64,000 nucleotides of DNA from Nitrospirota bacterium (GCA_016212105.1 JACRHJ010000028.1:11689-75688); one strand, 5' to 3'; positions 16,598-60,425 are shown, counted from the stretch's first letter. Program-made: numbers and translations. Notes: generated by a model from the sequence alone, not told the origin.

Positions 16598-16789
16598 ATG
16601 CCGATAAAAGAGATAGTAAAAGACAGCCGGAAATACGCGGGGCAGTACGTCGCCACGAAGTCCTTCAGGAGCAGGACCGTCGTGAGCCACGGAAAGGACC
16701 CGCTCGCCGTCTGGGACGACGCGGAGAAGAAGGGCGTCAAGGACCCGGTCGTGTTTTTCATACCGCGTTCTGATATGAAATTGCATTAG
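16598..16789 (+). CDS. small DUF5678-like protein
   Basis: 63 aa. The pattern YAGQYVA....VVSHGKDPLAVWDDAEKKGVKDPVVFFIP matches my recollection of DUF5678. A promoter-like element lies at 16531-16560. Confidence 0.6.
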   Translation: MPIKEIVKDSRKYAGQYVATKSFRSRTVVSHGKDPLAVWDDAEKKGVKDPVVFFIPRSDMKLH

Positions 16790-16929
16790 ACCCACCGAAT
16801 CTTAATAAGTCCGACAATAAGACAATTTGGCGAGATAGAACCAACGGTAGCTCGTAATCGGGATGCAATATTGACGCGCTGTCGGCTATAATGTATTCTT
16901 GTAGTTAACTTACTGGTAAATCTCCTACT

Positions 16930-17379
16930 ATGAGCGCAGAGTATAATCCGCTACTTACACCTGGCTTTCACGATATTCCAACCGATGATCTGGAGCAAGT
17001 TTTCGTCGCGCCTTTTCCCGACCCGACTCATAGGAGCTATTTGGTAGAACGATTGAAAGTTCTTTTATCAATAGTGAACGATGTTGGCATTGCTTTTGAA
17101 ATATGGATAGACGGATCATTTACAACCGAAAAACCCCAACCATCTGACATAGACATAGCTTTCTTTTTCGACCCACAAGAAGTTAACGATTTGCCAAAGG
17201 ACAAATTGGACATTTTAATGGACGTGTTTTCAAATCCCACGCAGACAAAGTATAGGTATAAATGCGATGTTTATTTTGTACCCAACAACGCAATAAATGA
17301 TCGTAGTTATTGGCGTGGTTGGTTTGGCTTTTCAAGAAATGAGCAGCCAAAGGGAATCGCTAGAATCATACTGAATTAA
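16930..17379 (+). CDS. minimal Pol-beta-fold nucleotidyltransferase (DUF6932-like)
   Basis: 149 aa in the AT-rich island. The NTase signature hG[GS]-x9-DxD is present as WIDGSFTTEKPQPSDIDIAFF. A third acidic residue is in YKCDVYFV. The N-terminal TPGFHDIPTDDLEQVF and C-terminal KGIARI resemble small stand-alone NTases. The DUF6932 label is from memory. Confidence 0.75.
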   Translation: MSAEYNPLLTPGFHDIPTDDLEQVFVAPFPDPTHRSYLVERLKVLLSIVNDVGIAFEIWIDGSFTTEKPQPSDIDIAFFFDPQEVNDLPKDKLDILMDVFSNPTQTKYRYKCDVYFVPNNAINDRSYWRGWFGFSRNEQPKGIARIILN

Positions 17380-17394
17380 GGCACCGGTAATAAC

Positions 17395-18327
17395 ATGAAT
17401 ATAATAGAAAAACTTAATAACCAAATCGTAGCCGCTAATGATATGTTAGCTCGTTACGAAACCGTTCTTGATAAAGAGCCCAAGAATATTGCGTATCAAC
17501 TAAGCGCTATTAGTGTCAAAAGTCACATTTCGGAACTACAGCATCAGTTGCAGCGCGAAAAGATTCTTCGAGAAAAAGAAGTATTGGAGATACGCTTAAA
17601 AGGAGTAACTGCTAACGGAAGCATACCCCTGTCCGTGTTATCCGAATTGTCACTTTACCTATCCGATGCATTACAGGCAACTTCTCAGAAAGTGAAAACT
17701 GGGTTAGATGCAAAGAGACGAATATTGAAAGATATTGTTAATACCCTTGACCTAAGACTTGCTGGTTTAGCTACAGGTTCGACTCGTTTAATAATTACGG
17801 GTAACTCCTCACCAGATCTATTCGGACAAAGTCTTTTAGAAAGCAGTCTAGAGAATACCTTTGCATTATTAGAATCTCGTTCTGCTGAAGAATTAACAGA
17901 AGGTGTTTCTAAAGTTGGTATACGTAGCGCGAATAAGTTTAACAAATTCCTAAAAACAATTTCCGATTCTGGTTATGAAGTTGACATTTCATGGGTATCG
18001 CCTACGAAACATGAATATGATTGGAAAGCCAGCATGGATGATATACGTAGTCTATCTAATTCTCTGGACAGTATAACAATGTCTCAGAACGAAATTTTCG
18101 AATTTAAAGGTAAATTAGTTATGGCTAGCTTAAAAGGCGCCTTTGAGATAGAGACCGACGCCGAAGAAACAATAAAGGGGAAATTCCCAACACAATTAAC
18201 AGAGTATGTCAAAAAGCTTCATATCGGAGATAAGTGCAACGGTATGATAGAAAAGGAAACGATTACTAATCGAACCACGGGACTTGAAAAAGTATACTAT
18301 ACATTGCTTGAAATAGAAGCCATCTAA
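17395..18327 (+). CDS. hypothetical protein, partner of the NTase (no recognisable domain)
   Basis: 310 aa, starting 15 nt after the NTase stop, with the same AT-rich composition. The N-terminal 65 aa or so are heptad-like and Q/E/L-rich. No TM helices, no P-loop and no Rx4-6H motif were found. Confidence 0.75.
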   Translation: MNIIEKLNNQIVAANDMLARYETVLDKEPKNIAYQLSAISVKSHISELQHQLQREKILREKEVLEIRLKGVTANGSIPLSVLSELSLYLSDALQATSQKVKTGLDAKRRILKDIVNTLDLRLAGLATGSTRLIITGNSSPDLFGQSLLESSLENTFALLESRSAEELTEGVSKVGIRSANKFNKFLKTISDSGYEVDISWVSPTKHEYDWKASMDDIRSLSNSLDSITMSQNEIFEFKGKLVMASLKGAFEIETDAEETIKGKFPTQLTEYVKKLHIGDKCNGMIEKETITNRTTGLEKVYYTLLEIEAI

Positions 18328-18372
18328 TTCCTGGCCTGTTTTAACATTCCGGGAATCAAAACCACGCAGACC

Positions 18373-18398
18373 AAAATGGCCGCCCTCCCGGGCGGCCA
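18373..18398. repeat. 26-nt hairpin AAAATGGCCGCCCTCCCGGGCGGCCA, copy 1 (terminator-like, downstream of hicA and of the island operon)
   Basis: Identical to 18982..19007. The stem is ATGGCCGCCC/GGGCGGCCAT with loop TCCC. A T-run follows on the minus strand. Confidence 0.85.
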
Positions 18399-18452
18399 GT
18401 CGCATTTTATAATTCACTCTTTTCTGAAGATACACACGTGAGGCATGCCTTC

Positions 18453-18683
18453 TTAAACCATCTCCTCAAACTCCTCCACCGTCATCCCCGCATCCTTCAA
18501 AATCGCCTTCAACGTCTTTGGCGGGATAACCTGCCCTGCGTGCATCGCAACCACCACGCGCCGCTTGCCGTCTTCGCTCTTGAATACCGCATGGCTACCA
18601 GTCTGGTGGTGCAGGGCGAAGCCCTTCCTGTTCAGGACGCGCACGAGGTCCTTGTCGGTGACGCGCGGCAGGCGCGGGGTCAT
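18453..18683 (-). CDS. hicA: type II toxin HicA (mRNA interferase)
   Basis: 76 aa. LVRVLNRKGFALHHQTGSHAVF is the HicA signature. It overlaps hicB by 4 nt. Confidence 0.9.
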   Translation of the reverse strand: MTPRLPRVTDKDLVRVLNRKGFALHHQTGSHAVFKSEDGKRRVVVAMHAGQVIPPKTLKAILKDAGMTVEEFEEMV

Positions 18684-18895
18684 GCCGCCACTTCCACCTT
18701 CTCGGCGGAGTCCTCAGGGAACGGCAGCCCGTCCTTCTTGAGGCTTTCGAGATAAGCCTCTATCGCCTCGCGTATGTTCGCAAGCGCCTCGTCCTTCGTG
18801 CCGCCGTAGGAATGACAGCCGGGAAGCGCGGGACAGTAAACATGGAACCCGCCCCCTTCCTCGTCCTCGAAGATAACCGTATATCTTACAGACAT
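18680..18895 (-). CDS. hicB: type II antitoxin HicB-like (UPF0150 fold)
   Basis: 71 aa. YTVIFEDEEGGGFHVYCPALPGCHSYGGTKDEALANIREAIEAYLE is typical of the HicB N-terminal domain. Confidence 0.88.
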   Translation of the reverse strand: MSVRYTVIFEDEEGGGFHVYCPALPGCHSYGGTKDEALANIREAIEAYLESLKKDGLPFPEDSAEKVEVAA

Positions 18896-18981
18896 TACAA
18901 CCTCCAGAATTAAAGCCTGCCTGTATGTTAAGCCATACCGGAAACTTTTTCAACCAAAATGTAGTTGATAGCCAGCGCACA

Positions 18982-19007
18982 AAAATGGCCGCCCTCCCGG
19001 GCGGCCA
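18982..19007. repeat. 26-nt hairpin AAAATGGCCGCCCTCCCGGGCGGCCA, copy 2 (terminator-like, downstream of the SnoaL-like gene)
   Basis: Identical to 18373..18398 and in the same orientation. TTTTT follows on the minus strand. Confidence 0.85.
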
Positions 19008-58238: not shown

Positions 58239-59048
58239 CTATTTGGCGACCTTTATCTCCCTGATACAGGACTTGCCGTCGACGTCGAGGCAGTAGGCCT
58301 TGACCTTGGAGCCTACCGCAAGCTCGTCCATGGCCGCGCCTCTGGTCACGTCCTGGTAATACAGCGTCTTCTCTCCTGCCGCGGTCTTTATGACCACGGT
58401 CTTTCCGGCCGGGTCGAGCGAGACGACCTCGCCCTCCACCTCGCCAGGCTGCATCGATTTGGCAGCCGCCTTGCTGGCGAACACTGTCACTTTGTTCGCG
58501 CAGAACTTGCCGTCGCTGTCGAAACACTCCGCGGTCACATAGGAGCCGGGGGCTATCAGCCTAACTGGCAGCAACTCGCAGGCAAGCATCTTGGAGCCCG
58601 CCACGTTGGCCGGGGCGCCGCAGACGGATACCATATCGACCGTCGCGGCGGTCACCTTGATGGTCATCTTCTCGCCCTTGGGGTTGACGATGACCACCGT
58701 CTTGCCCTCAGGGTCGATAGATACAACCTCGCCTTCGAACGTCTTCGTCGGGGCCCCGGAGCCCGCTACGGATATTACCTCGACGGTCTTCGCGCAGGCC
58801 TTCCCCTCGAGGTCGATGCAGGTCATCTCGACGCTCATCCCCGGCTTGACGTCCTTGAAGCCGACGGTCTCGTCCTGGAAGTTGACGGTTTTGTGGCCAG
58901 CCTCAGTGTCGATTACAACCGTCTTTCCGGACGGGTCTATGGACACCACCTTGCCTGTTACCGAGTACTCGCCCCCGGCGAAAGACACCGCGGCCACCAT
59001 GCAGGTAACGGCCAGCGCGGCCAACATCGTGTAAAGCGGCTTTTTCAT
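58239..59048 (-). CDS. secreted protein with three tandem beta-rich repeats, each ending in a CxDxxGKxC motif
   Basis: The signal peptide is MKKPLYTMLAALAVTCMVAAVSFA. The repeats start GKVVSIDPSGKTVVI, GEVVSIDPEGKTVVI and GEVVSLDPAGKTVVI. They end TCIDLEGKAC, ECFDSDGKFC and YCLDVDGKSC. Confidence 0.75.
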   Translation of the reverse strand: MKKPLYTMLAALAVTCMVAAVSFAGGEYSVTGKVVSIDPSGKTVVIDTEAGHKTVNFQDETVGFKDVKPGMSVEMTCIDLEGKACAKTVEVISVAGSGAPTKTFEGEVVSIDPEGKTVVIVNPKGEKMTIKVTAATVDMVSVCGAPANVAGSKMLACELLPVRLIAPGSYVTAECFDSDGKFCANKVTVFASKAAAKSMQPGEVEGEVVSLDPAGKTVVIKTAAGEKTLYYQDVTRGAAMDELAVGSKVKAYCLDVDGKSCIREIKVAK

Positions 59049-59156
59049 GCTCTGCCTCCAAGTCTCTCCTCTTGCAAGAGGTGATAGGGGAAAAATACTG
59101 CATAATCCTCCATTCACTTAAAGTTAGCAATGGATATGTTATTTGTCAAGGAGGGC

Positions 59157-59187
59157 AAAAAAAGGCCCCGTCCTGAAGGGCGGGGCC
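59157..59187 (-). terminator. intrinsic terminator after the triheme cytochrome gene
   Basis: On the minus strand, the hairpin GGCCCCGCCC-ttca-GGACGGGGCC is followed by TTTTTTT (plus-strand A-run 59157-59163). Confidence 0.7.
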
Positions 59188-59214
59188 GTGAAAAACGAGG
59201 TTATGAGAGGTTTA

Positions 59215-59535
59215 TTACTTTACGTGGCACTTCGGGCAGCTGTCCGGGGACTTGACCGCGAAGGCCTTCTCGCCGTTGTGGCAGGCGCCGCAGTTCTTGC
59301 CGGCCTCCATGTCCGCCATGGTGAGCTTGTCGCCGCCCTTCTTCATCTTGAAGAGGCCGGGATGGCAGTCCGGGCACTTGAAGCCCTTCTTCTCTGTGTG
59401 GTTCTCGTGCGAGAAGACGACCTTGCCCTCATCACCGACGGCCGGGAACTCGACGTCCTTCTTGAGCGCGAAGCTGAGGCTCGCGAAAGAGAGGGTCATT
59501 ATCACGGCCAGTGCGAATACAGTAAGCTTTTTCAT
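59215..59535 (-). CDS. periplasmic triheme c-type cytochrome (c7/c3 family)
   Basis: 106 aa with a signal peptide and three CxxCH haem sites (CPDCH, CGACH, CPKCH). Extra His residues (FSHENH) could serve as distal ligands. Confidence 0.88.
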   Translation of the reverse strand: MKKLTVFALAVIMTLSFASLSFALKKDVEFPAVGDEGKVVFSHENHTEKKGFKCPDCHPGLFKMKKGGDKLTMADMEAGKNCGACHNGEKAFAVKSPDSCPKCHVK

Positions 59536-59684
59536 CGTATGGTTTTACCTCCTTCCTCTTATAGTAGTGTTGCCTGTCTCTTCAGGTCCGTACTCTGTTG
59601 TTATTTTTGTAATATGCAATAACACTGCCAGACGAAGGCCCCGGCACGCAAATAAAGCCTGCGCGCCCGGTTTGGTAATTAGAA

Positions 59685-59713
59685 ATATTAAGTCATAAAC
59701 TCGAAAATGTCAA
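59685..59713 (-). promoter_or_regulatory. possible promoter of the triheme cytochrome gene
   Basis: On the minus strand, TTGACA (59713-59708), a 17-nt spacer, then TAATAT (59690-59685). This implies a roughly 140-nt leader. Confidence 0.3.
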
Positions 59714-59863
59714 CCTAAAACATCATGCCCGCACTCCCGCCGGGACACAAAATACAGCACAAAAACTGACATATGTCATCGCCGGGAGGCCGGGGTGGTG
59801 TATAATGGAACCATAAAACGGACACAAACGGCTGACACAGGCTATAATAACAGGAGGTGGAAT

Positions 59864-60079
59864 ATGACGGCTCTCATCAAGGTGGACAAGAATACAATAA
59901 TCGGCGACATCGTGAAGTCCTGTCCGGAGGGCAAGGAGGTCATCCAGAAGTATTTCGGCACCGGCTGCTTCACATGCCCGGGCATCAACATGGAGTCCAT
60001 AGGCTTCGGCTCGATGATGCACAACCTCGACCCGCAGCTCATCGTGGACGAGGTGAACGCCGCCCTCGAAAAGAAATAA
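59864..60079 (+). CDS. DUF1858 / hybrid-cluster-protein-associated redox disulfide domain protein
   Basis: 71 aa from the ATG at 59864, 6 nt after AGGAGG. TIIGDIVKSCPEGKEVIQKYFGTGCFTCPG...ESI matches the family pattern, including CxxC. Confidence 0.8.
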   Translation: MTALIKVDKNTIIGDIVKSCPEGKEVIQKYFGTGCFTCPGINMESIGFGSMMHNLDPQLIVDEVNAALEKK

Positions 60080-60425
60080 TATCAGGAAAGAAAAGCAGGT
60101 GTTCCGGCCCCCCGGACATCCCCGCACGACGGCCTCCGGCTCCCCTGCCTGGAGGCCGTCGTGCATTCCGCGTCCTTACGTCAGGTCAACTCCAAGAACA
60201 GCATAGCAGGCCAGGATGCCGGTACAGCCGGCAAACCCGGCGGTTCAGGTTATCTTCTTGCATTATAACGCAAATCCTGGCCAGTGAGCGATTTCGTGCA
60301 TGCGTGGGCGCCGCTGTCAAATTATGCTCAGTGTCTGCGCGAATTTTCGCCACCCCAGTCGGAAAGCTGTCCAACATGCTGATTTGCCTGTGTATTTACA
60401 GGTGCGCATTTTTGCGAAATACTGC

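Follow-up and report, generated by a model that had tools for sequence, protein, structure and literature searches.

What is the short AT-rich islet that breaks into an otherwise GC-rich 64-kb stretch of Nitrospirota bacterium DNA, and what might its two genes do? Coordinates throughout are those of this whole stretch, which we call the window. The islet carries two open reading frames (ORFs) in the same direction, ORF1 (16930-17379, + strand) and ORF2 (17395-18327, + strand), whose products we call A and B. An earlier note on this DNA had read them as a candidate undescribed TA or defence module that joins a minimal nucleotidyltransferase (NTase) of the Pol-beta fold to an orphan partner. The two frames and the 15-nt gap between them are as that note gave them, but the pair is not undescribed. 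A belongs to Pfam family DUF6932, both proteins match PHROG families, and both match over their full length the two components of a candidate system in the PADLOC catalogue, PDC-M63. Judged from these matches the islet pair is PDC-M63, with an M63A-type and an M63B-type protein encoded by adjacent, co-directional genes in the order A>>B. As to what it does, we favour, with doubt slightly outweighing belief, a mobile cassette acting in phage defence or superinfection exclusion, in which the partner would be the sensor and the NTase the effector.

The PDC systems are 145 untested 'guilt-by-embedding' candidates, put forward because copies of them lie inside BREX, DISARM or type I restriction-modification (RM) loci (Payne et al., 10.1101/2024.01.29.577857). 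There, PDC-M63, proposed for its copies in RM/BREX loci, is cassette CAS_00189, FAM_00167>>FAM_00523; a more frequent cassette of FAM_00167 with FAM_01519 (269 instances) was rejected by the same authors. The islet pair is like PDC-M63 in the full-length matches of A and B, in gene order and in adjacency, and is distinguished only by its host and its extreme GC contrast. Our literature search found no mention of DUF6932 and no paper on the function of mEpX1 gp41/gp42. A mention of MNT in a BREX paper concerns HEPN-MNT fusions and not the A-B pair.

A is a protein of 149 aa with an ATG start. It matches DUF6932 (PF22014) with E 4.8e-33 and 115 bits (cutoff 27; residues 5-146 on positions 5-141 of a 142-position profile), PADLOC PDC-M63A (PDLC04744) with E 1.6e-56 (residues 3-148 on positions 4-149 of 152), and phrog_9194 with E 7.7e-34. 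The homologue search found DUF6932 proteins to be numerous. Other NTase models stay below threshold: Pfam Polbeta gives 20.1 bits against 26.9, NTP_transf_2 is likewise sub-threshold, and NCBIfam MntA (NF047752) gives 15.8 bits, far under its cutoff of 60. The earlier note had seen a complete NTase signature with a third aspartate in this bare domain, and here it was right. The active-site motif G62-S63-x9-D73-x-D75, with D73-I-D75 in A, lies at 17113-17154 (regular-expression match GSFTTEKPQPSDID), and the third catalytic carboxylate is D113 in KCDVYFV (17266-17268); together they conform to the Pol-beta superfamily signature, hG[GS]-x9-13-Dh[DE]h plus a third carboxylate. The first motif is invariant or nearly so in an alignment of 64 A sequences, D113 is present in at least 90% of these homologues, and G62, S63, D73, D75 and D113 are all invariant in the 23 A homologues from the loci that we examined. 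From the invariant triad, A is predicted to be a catalytically intact NTase.

Another conserved block of the DUF6932 family lies near the C-terminus of A, S126-Y-W-R-G-W-x-G-F-x-R-x-E-x-x-K-G142 (17305-17355). Its invariant or near-invariant columns in the 64 sequences are S126, Y127, W128, R129, G130, W131, G133, F134, R136, E138, K141 and G142, and this SYWRGWxGF-type motif is less constant in divergent copies of A. It may form a substrate or partner surface. The AlphaFold2 (AF2) model of A has a pLDDT of 95.6. Its top Foldseek matches in the PDB are nearly all NTases of the Pol-beta fold (MNT, HI0073, LinB, Pol beta, AadA, Cid1), and a PDB search by sequence gave noise only. Because the fold matches are weak (best E about 8e-3, range 8e-3 to 0.1, TM-score about 0.38), A is, as modelled, a divergent minimal Pol-beta NTase that has no close solved relative. 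No transmembrane segment is predicted in it, the maximum hydropathy over 19 aa being 1.58.

B is 310 aa long from its ATG start and belongs to no Pfam family. To profile searches it is a known candidate component rather than an orphan: it matches PADLOC PDC-M63B (PDLC04747) with E 4.3e-90 over residues 1-307 (positions 1-308 of 309), five additional PDC-M63B models also match it, and so does phrog_6603 with E 2.1e-49. An exhaustive profile search put its family at no fewer than 1,505 cluster representatives (50% identity) at E<=1e-3, 204 of them under 1e-30, nearly all stand-alone proteins of 305-320 aa. None of the family members carries a Pfam domain or a name, and a further homologue search with a deep alignment gained just unannotated 'hypothetical' proteins.

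The AF2 model of B (pLDDT 95.6, pTM 0.89) has three parts. Residues 1-59 (17395-17571) form an antiparallel helical hairpin with helices at 3-27 and 32-59. Residues 60-229 (17572-18081) form a central alpha/beta core, the most conserved part, which is shared with PDC-M02B and probably also with PDC-M32A. Residues 230-310 (18082-18324) form an OB-like five-stranded barrel arranged as b1-b2-b3-helix-b4-b5. In an alignment of 137 B sequences, entropy is lowest at residues 61-150, the serine of G128-S129 (17776-17781) is the sole invariant residue, and variation is greatest in the hairpin and the OB-like domain. Only 3 of the 81 positions in the OB-like domain are conserved at 80% or more, and its median net charge is 0. 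On the model, this domain is a candidate specificity or sensor domain. Foldseek found no full-length match to B in the PDB, only OB-folds, with IF1, SSB, eIF5A, the LigE OB domain, DUF3127 and S1-like domains recurring, and the same pattern was repeated in a viral structure library. The PDB sequence search with ORF2 returned nothing, and the family profile matched only coiled-coil keratins in the region of the hairpin.

Nothing in B looks like a known effector or toxin. Pfam and PADLOC gave no effector-domain match and no recognisable toxic domain in B or among 137 family members, in which only two HEPN-type models matched, each in one member and with a weak E-value. The Rx4-6H motif is absent from ORF2, as the earlier note had said, and no transmembrane segment is predicted (maximum 19-aa hydropathy 1.03). 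A SUKH_5 lead was sub-threshold (23.4 against 27 bits) and appeared in only one of the 137 members, so B is not assigned to the SUKH (SMI1/KNR4) group; a CTD3/ABC-3C match (E 0.026) was not reproduced across the family. The best structural match of B in BFVD is a 'DUF6575 domain-containing protein' (E 2.6e-16), which we treat as a lead only, there being no sequence-level DUF6575 match among the matches listed and no match to a Vassallo PD-* model either. DUF6575 is found in one of the validated systems of Vassallo et al. (PMC9519451).

With hidden Markov models built from the A and B families, we asked how constant the pairing is. In all 13 reference-genome loci for which upstream DNA was included, the A gene immediately precedes the B gene in the same orientation; the loci belong to Nitrospirae, Ignavibacteriota, Desulfobacteraceae, Flavobacterium, Lacihabitans (Bacteroidota) and Gammaproteobacteria. 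The same arrangement is present in three phages, a metagenomic prophage, one IMG/VR contig (the only locus that the IMG/VR scan yielded), E. coli G3/10 and the window itself. When loci were seeded from A homologues instead, a partner with the hairpin was found in 8/8. ORF1 homologues thus do keep a conserved partner immediately downstream, a matter that the earlier note had left to be looked into. Spacing between the two genes ranges from an 8-nt overlap to the 15-nt gap seen here (17380-17394, GGCACCGGTAATAAC), and the commonest forms are a 4-nt overlap of the ATGA type and a 2-nt gap. The frequency of the 4-nt overlap suggests translational coupling. At most loci the pair has a lower GC content than the DNA on either side. 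The mEpX1-type allele was present in 18 of 5,426 complete E. coli genomes, in every case on the chromosome, where RefSeq labels it only 'DUF6932 family protein' and 'hypothetical protein'.

A few loci depart from the intact pair. In Salinisphaera sp. G21_0 (locus L017, 8001-8958), a +1 frameshift divides the B gene at a T-run in the conserved PDLFG motif, and the A beside it is intact with all catalytic residues present. The frameshift may reflect a true pseudogene or a fault of assembly. As it stands, intact A next to broken B fits an effector that is idle until triggered better than a constitutive toxin, and so tells weakly against the view that A is a constitutive toxin which B has to neutralise. 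In a Motiliproteus metagenome-assembled genome (MAG), A and the 5' part of B end one contig (L018, 7504-8231) and its 3' part opens another (L016, 28-747), with an apparent assembly break within B; this pair has a GC contrast of -0.20. Distant DUF6932 NTases with an intact triad also occur with neither B nor a TPR partner, in Streptococcus phage MissE1 (L003, 3941-4581) and in the satellite Javan304. In MissE1, the NTase gene is followed by an overlapping ORF of 55 aa that has no Pfam match, and the NTase gene itself is set between genes for a RelE-family toxin and an ImmA peptidase.

The partner of A is not always B. Three of the eight A-seeded loci (L026 7480-8529, L035 4487-5530, L036 4454-5464) have an alternative partner of 336-349 aa. 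When these proteins are compared with the B-family profile, only the hairpin matches: they share the first ~52 residues of B (E 4e-10 to 4e-12), and the remainder is TPR. Their NTases are 48-50% identical to ORF1, against 44-46% for the NTases partnered by B.

The core of B, in turn, is not confined to NTase partners. Besides PDC-M63B, 37 of the 137 B-family members also match PDC-M32A (best E 7e-8) and 11 match PDC-M02B. The second-best viral structural match of ORF2 is Q6NE06 of Leptospira phage LE1 (LE1-0037, a PDC-M02B protein; Foldseek E 4.9e-8), and 2 nt upstream of its gene is LE1-0038 (PDC-M02A, Pfam DUF4365). By hhalign, the B family aligns to a set of five M02B sequences with a probability of 95.2% and E 2.7e-8 over 219 columns, covering B residues 55-274 and placing G128-S129 on an invariant G156-S157; the alignment is significant only with these five sequences together, the B profile against LE1-0037 by itself giving a probability of 0.26. 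The hairpin of B falls outside the alignable region. M02B homologues are found at five plasmid loci, in three of which RefSeq places a DUF4365 gene directly upstream; the upstream ORF of the Pigmentibacter locus gave only transposase-like matches, and the Methylobacterium record is unannotated. On one of the plasmids, p28 of Entomospira culicis (28 kb; L031, 1-5268), the PDC-M02 pair is flanked by two DUF262 (GmrSD-like) genes and by a HicA toxin gene with a helix-turn-helix (HTH) partner. That locus is a compact islet of defence and toxin-antitoxin (TA) genes.

PDC-M02 therefore resembles the islet pair in having the gene of a small enzyme followed by that of a large partner, which it abuts or overlaps, and a partner core homologous to that of B down to the invariant G-S. 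It differs in its small enzyme, a PD-(D/E)xK-type DUF4365 nuclease where ORF1 encodes a DUF6932 NTase and not an M02A protein, and in its partner, which is ~70 residues longer than B. DUF4365 is the validated nuclease effector domain of SPARDA short-Argonaute defence (PMC10810196, PMC12205087). SPARDA, composed of a short pAgo and a DUF4365-APAZ protein, couples a sensor to the same effector domain that stands beside a B-like core in PDC-M02; B shows no detected similarity to Argonaute or APAZ, and the link from SPARDA to the islet pair is indirect, by way of M02. What emerges is a double dissociation: the hairpin is there wherever the small enzyme is an NTase, and the core can go with an NTase or with a nuclease. 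From this we infer that the hairpin would dock A, that the partner body would sense or regulate, and that the small enzyme would be the effector.

The surroundings of the pair in other genomes are those of defence genes and mobile elements. Five independent lambdoid phages or prophages carry it: mEpX1, Erwinia phage Eho59, PhiR30_1, a metagenomic contig (L020) and the E. coli G3/10 prophage. All five have the same layout, in which a divergent Cro-like HTH gene and a cI/S24 repressor gene are followed by A, B and then nutL/N or kil-gam-bet. On the established lambda map, the slot after cI is that of rexA-rexB, exclusion genes co-transcribed with cI in lysogens. From this slot, co-oriented with cI, the pair would be expressed in the lysogen. 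Flavobacterium laiguense has it inside a type I RM operon, hsdM-hsdS-[A-B]-hsdR, the kind of embedding that motivated the candidacy of PDC-M63 being thus reproduced (L008). Elsewhere a type I methyltransferase gene directly follows the pair (L005), a NERD protein gene precedes it (L011), or a CD-NTase/Cap15 CBASS operon lies ~6 kb away (L025). In the closest relative, a Nitrospirae MAG, it adjoins HEPN_RES_NTD1+RES and PLD-like genes. Some loci lie beside insertion sequence (IS) elements and some in TA-rich patches, and in the window the neighbour is hicAB.

In Vibrio mexicanus (NZ_JYJP01000018.1; L014, 4376-7511), attC/VCR-like repeats of ~120 nt, spaced 570-690 nt apart, run up to the pair. 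The last of them ends 38 nt before A, so that the pair appears to be a cassette of a sedentary chromosomal integron; the contig stops just past B, short of any downstream attC. The TPR variant has surroundings of its own. At L035 (1-3883) the NTase+TPR pair directly follows, in the same orientation, a gene for a 1,674-aa NACHT-HEAT protein (STAND NTPase). In a Pyrinomonadaceae MAG (DATHHW010000019.1; L036, 350-7510) the NTase+TPR pair sits amid a pyrimidine-biosynthesis cluster, with genes of the PRTase/UPRTase and OTCase/ATCase families and a dihydroorotase gene on one side and genes for dihydroorotate dehydrogenase and OMP decarboxylase on the other; this is an unusual place for a putative defence cassette to have inserted.

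How might a pair of this kind act? In the mechanism that we propose, the N-terminal hairpin of B would dock A, and the body of the partner, whether core plus OB-like domain or TPR, would sense an infection cue or exert regulation. The cue would release or activate A, and A would then nucleotidylylate a cellular or phage target, most plausibly the 3' end of a nucleic acid such as tRNA by analogy to MenT and AbiEii, stopping growth or phage replication. Where phage-borne, the cassette would be expressed in the lysogen. MenT and AbiEii are NTase toxins of the Pol-beta fold that modify tRNA 3' ends. With their family (DUF1814) they supply a precedent, in that the part of a defence or TA pair which arrests growth can be a Pol-beta NTase. 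A has about half the length of these toxins, neither Pfam nor PADLOC assigns ORF1 or its 64 homologues to any such family, and AbiEi and MenA are unrelated to B. The earlier note had held that the pair is none of MNT-HEPN, AbiE or MenT, and that judgement stands, extended to CBASS.

Other systems are nearer in position or in principle than in descent. RexA and RexB of lambda share with the pair the slot after cI, but neither A nor B matches them in PADLOC, in Pfam or by structure. RexB, moreover, is a multi-pass membrane protein, and both A and B are predicted to be free of transmembrane segments. Hailong consists of the NTase HalB and the channel HalA, a transmembrane effector gated by oligodeoxyadenylate that the NTase makes; it is a functional analogy for NTase-based defence only, and with a B that has no predicted transmembrane segment, membership is unlikely. 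A more general picture, which we regard as possible but doubtful, is that DUF6932 NTases would be the effectors of a hitherto unrecognised modular immune family in which a hairpin of ~55 residues docks the enzyme on interchangeable sensor bodies (a B core with its OB-like domain, or a TPR array), that the core of B would represent a new sensor superfamily working with a SPARDA-type DUF4365 nuclease in PDC-M02 and probably recurring in PDC-M32A and DUF6575-type proteins, and that a new mechanism of minimal-NTase abortive infection would be its outcome.

Several observations pull against a defence role with B as sensor and A as effector. The most direct comes from native E. coli NILS69, in which deletion of a prophage PDC-M63AB left sensitivity to 10 virulent double-stranded DNA phages unchanged (10.1101/2024.12.20.629700); this is the only functional test of PDC-M63 that we found in the literature. 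The solved structures closest to A are MNT antitoxins (7ae9, 7bxo, 6m6u) and not NTase toxins, although the likeness is weak. Docking through the hairpin is read from domain co-occurrence only, with three TPR-type examples. In the OB-like domain, which is charge-neutral, only one basic and two aromatic positions are conserved; with no conserved basic surface there, nucleic-acid binding is not established. Some loci stand among housekeeping genes (glnE, imuAB-dnaE2, a pyrimidine operon). Finally, the argument from Salinisphaera comes down to a single frameshift in a T-run of a draft assembly.

The MNT likeness of A raises the thought that the roles are the reverse, in a type VII-like TA system where B would be the toxin and A an antitoxin that nucleotidylylates it, as MntA does HepT. 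We think this unlikely, and yet it has a good deal to draw on: the best folds of A are those of MntA/MNT antitoxins, NCBIfam MntA matches it weakly, and the pair is often in TA-rich regions. Type VII mntA-hepT operons have the NTase gene first and its partner second, and the islet pair is likewise a two-gene operon headed by a minimal Pol-beta NTase. The invariant Ser129 of B could accept a nucleotide. It loses weight as an acceptor site, however, because the same G-S is conserved in M02B, whose partner is a nuclease, and so is not specific to NTases. Nor is B a HEPN protein or the bearer of any recognisable toxic domain, the MntA score of ORF1 is only about a quarter of its cutoff, and close relatives of A pair with TPR proteins that lack the core of B entirely and are unlikely to be toxins. 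Somewhat less probable again is classical addiction, with A as a constitutive toxin of the MenT/AbiEii type and the hairpin of its partner as a stoichiometric antitoxin, the pair serving to stabilise mobile elements. Genes that are tightly coupled or overlapping, their presence on prophages, in an integron cassette and beside IS elements, a hairpin that is all that the partners of A have in common, and the NILS69 deletion with its lack of a phage phenotype would all suit such a pair. A simple antitoxin, though, would have no need of large sensor-like bodies of the OB or TPR kind, and A survives intact beside a frameshifted B in Salinisphaera and, in distant form, solo in Streptococcus phages. 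No AbiEii/MenT-type model in Pfam or PADLOC matches, and embedding in a type I RM operon and the rexAB slot point to immunity.

The NILS69 result would also be expected if the pair benefited the prophage in some way other than defence of the host, through control of lysogeny or induction or through counter-defence, with chromosomal copies as remnants or domesticated forms. This has its basis in the co-oriented position directly downstream of cI in the five lambdoid (pro)phages and in the PHROG families to which both proteins belong. We consider it improbable. Most copies lie outside recognisable prophages, be it within a type I RM operon, as an integron cassette, close to CBASS or at plain chromosomal sites, across at least 5 phyla. 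At the cI-rex slot, lambdoid phages classically carry exclusion genes that the lysogen expresses, and the homologous PDC-M02 protein is partnered with a nuclease effector, which also fits defence better. Least probable would be signalling of the CBASS kind, in which B would bind and respond to a nucleotide second messenger made by A. By its sequence A is an intact NTase, and B has a fold of a ligand-binding type. At 149 aa, however, A is without the C-terminal half of a CD-NTase, marginal 'Cyclase' matches (E 0.002-0.003) appear in only 1 of 64 A-family members, and B is without a recognisable effector domain or a transmembrane segment, so that ORF1 and ORF2 do not make up a CD-NTase with its effector; in the homologous M02 system, too, the small partner is a nuclease and makes no signal.

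We return to the window, where the earlier note had reported an abrupt shift to AT-rich composition. Windowed calculation upholds it. In 300-nt windows, GC is 0.35-0.43 over 16800-18450 and 0.60-0.69 on either side. In 1.5-kb windows, the minimum is 0.387 at 16801 against a background mean of 0.617 (standard deviation 0.023), which is z = -10 and the sole outlier of that size in the window; the difference between islet and flanks is -0.24. GC at third codon positions (GC3) is 0.39 in ORF1 and 0.32 in ORF2 and 0.69-0.91 in all neighbours, among them nadA (0.85), the DUF5678 gene (0.78), hicA (0.82), hicB (0.69) and a gene for a SnoaL-like protein (0.88). Since both genes contrast with every neighbour, the foreign composition is confined to them. 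On its composition, then, the islet is a recently acquired, horizontally transferred copy of the PDC-M63 cassette. In the 64 kb we found no direct repeats bracketing the islet, no tRNA and no integrase that would mark a mechanism of insertion, nor any Rfam family.

The left edge of the foreign segment is a drop in GC from 0.55 to 0.42 at ~16800, within the AT-rich leader upstream of ORF1 (16790-16929, + strand). The leader has a sigma-70-like match, TTGACG-17-TATTCT (16871-16899), which is a candidate promoter only, as promoter-like sites are no commoner there than in shuffled sequence (2 found, 3.5 expected). On the right, GC recovers from ~18300 onwards, and the edge is marked by a GC-rich hairpin, ATGGCCGCCCTCCCGGGCGGCCA (18376-18398), with 9 pairs of which 8 are G-C. 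It is a terminator-like site for the minus strand and looks like the terminator of hicA; it may also stop transcription of ORF2. The hairpin recurs within a 29-nt direct repeat, 97% identical, whose copies at 18370-18398 and 18979-19007 bracket hicA-hicB. These are the only two copies in 64 kb, with none expected by chance, and they occupy terminator positions on the minus strand, one past hicA and the other past the SnoaL-like gene. The repeat may be a duplicated terminator or a target site from insertion of hicAB.

The genes beside the islet are by Pfam a DUF5678 gene (16598-16789, E 3e-9) on the left and hicA (18453-18683, - strand) and hicB (18680-18895, - strand) on the right. The DUF5678 gene encodes 63 aa and stands alone between nadA and the islet. 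The idea that the pair sits in a defence or TA neighbourhood is partly supported. The hicBA module and DUF5678 do adjoin it, and its copies elsewhere keep defence company; in this genome, however, GC3 close to the host level places both hicBA and DUF5678 outside the recent acquisition, and DUF5678 was not co-acquired with the AT-rich pair. The second-lowest GC patch of the window lies far off, at ~58900-60200 (0.527-0.537 in 1.5-kb windows). It has two ORFs with no Pfam match, at 59143-59622 (+) and 59723-60166 (-), and the ORF at 58239-59117 (-) has weak matches to small beta-barrels only (CusF, TOBE, LSM).

The locus in the window is one more copy of a catalogued candidate and not in itself a discovery. 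It is the comparative results, namely the strict order of A and then partner, the rexAB slot, the homology of the core to the partner of a nuclease, and the variants that join the hairpin to TPR, that turn an anonymous gene pair into a testable architecture of a small enzyme plus a sensor. If the partner is indeed a sensor and the NTase its effector, PDC-M63, M02 and M32 would be one modular superfamily, and a minimal NTase docked on a protein would join the list of defence effectors.

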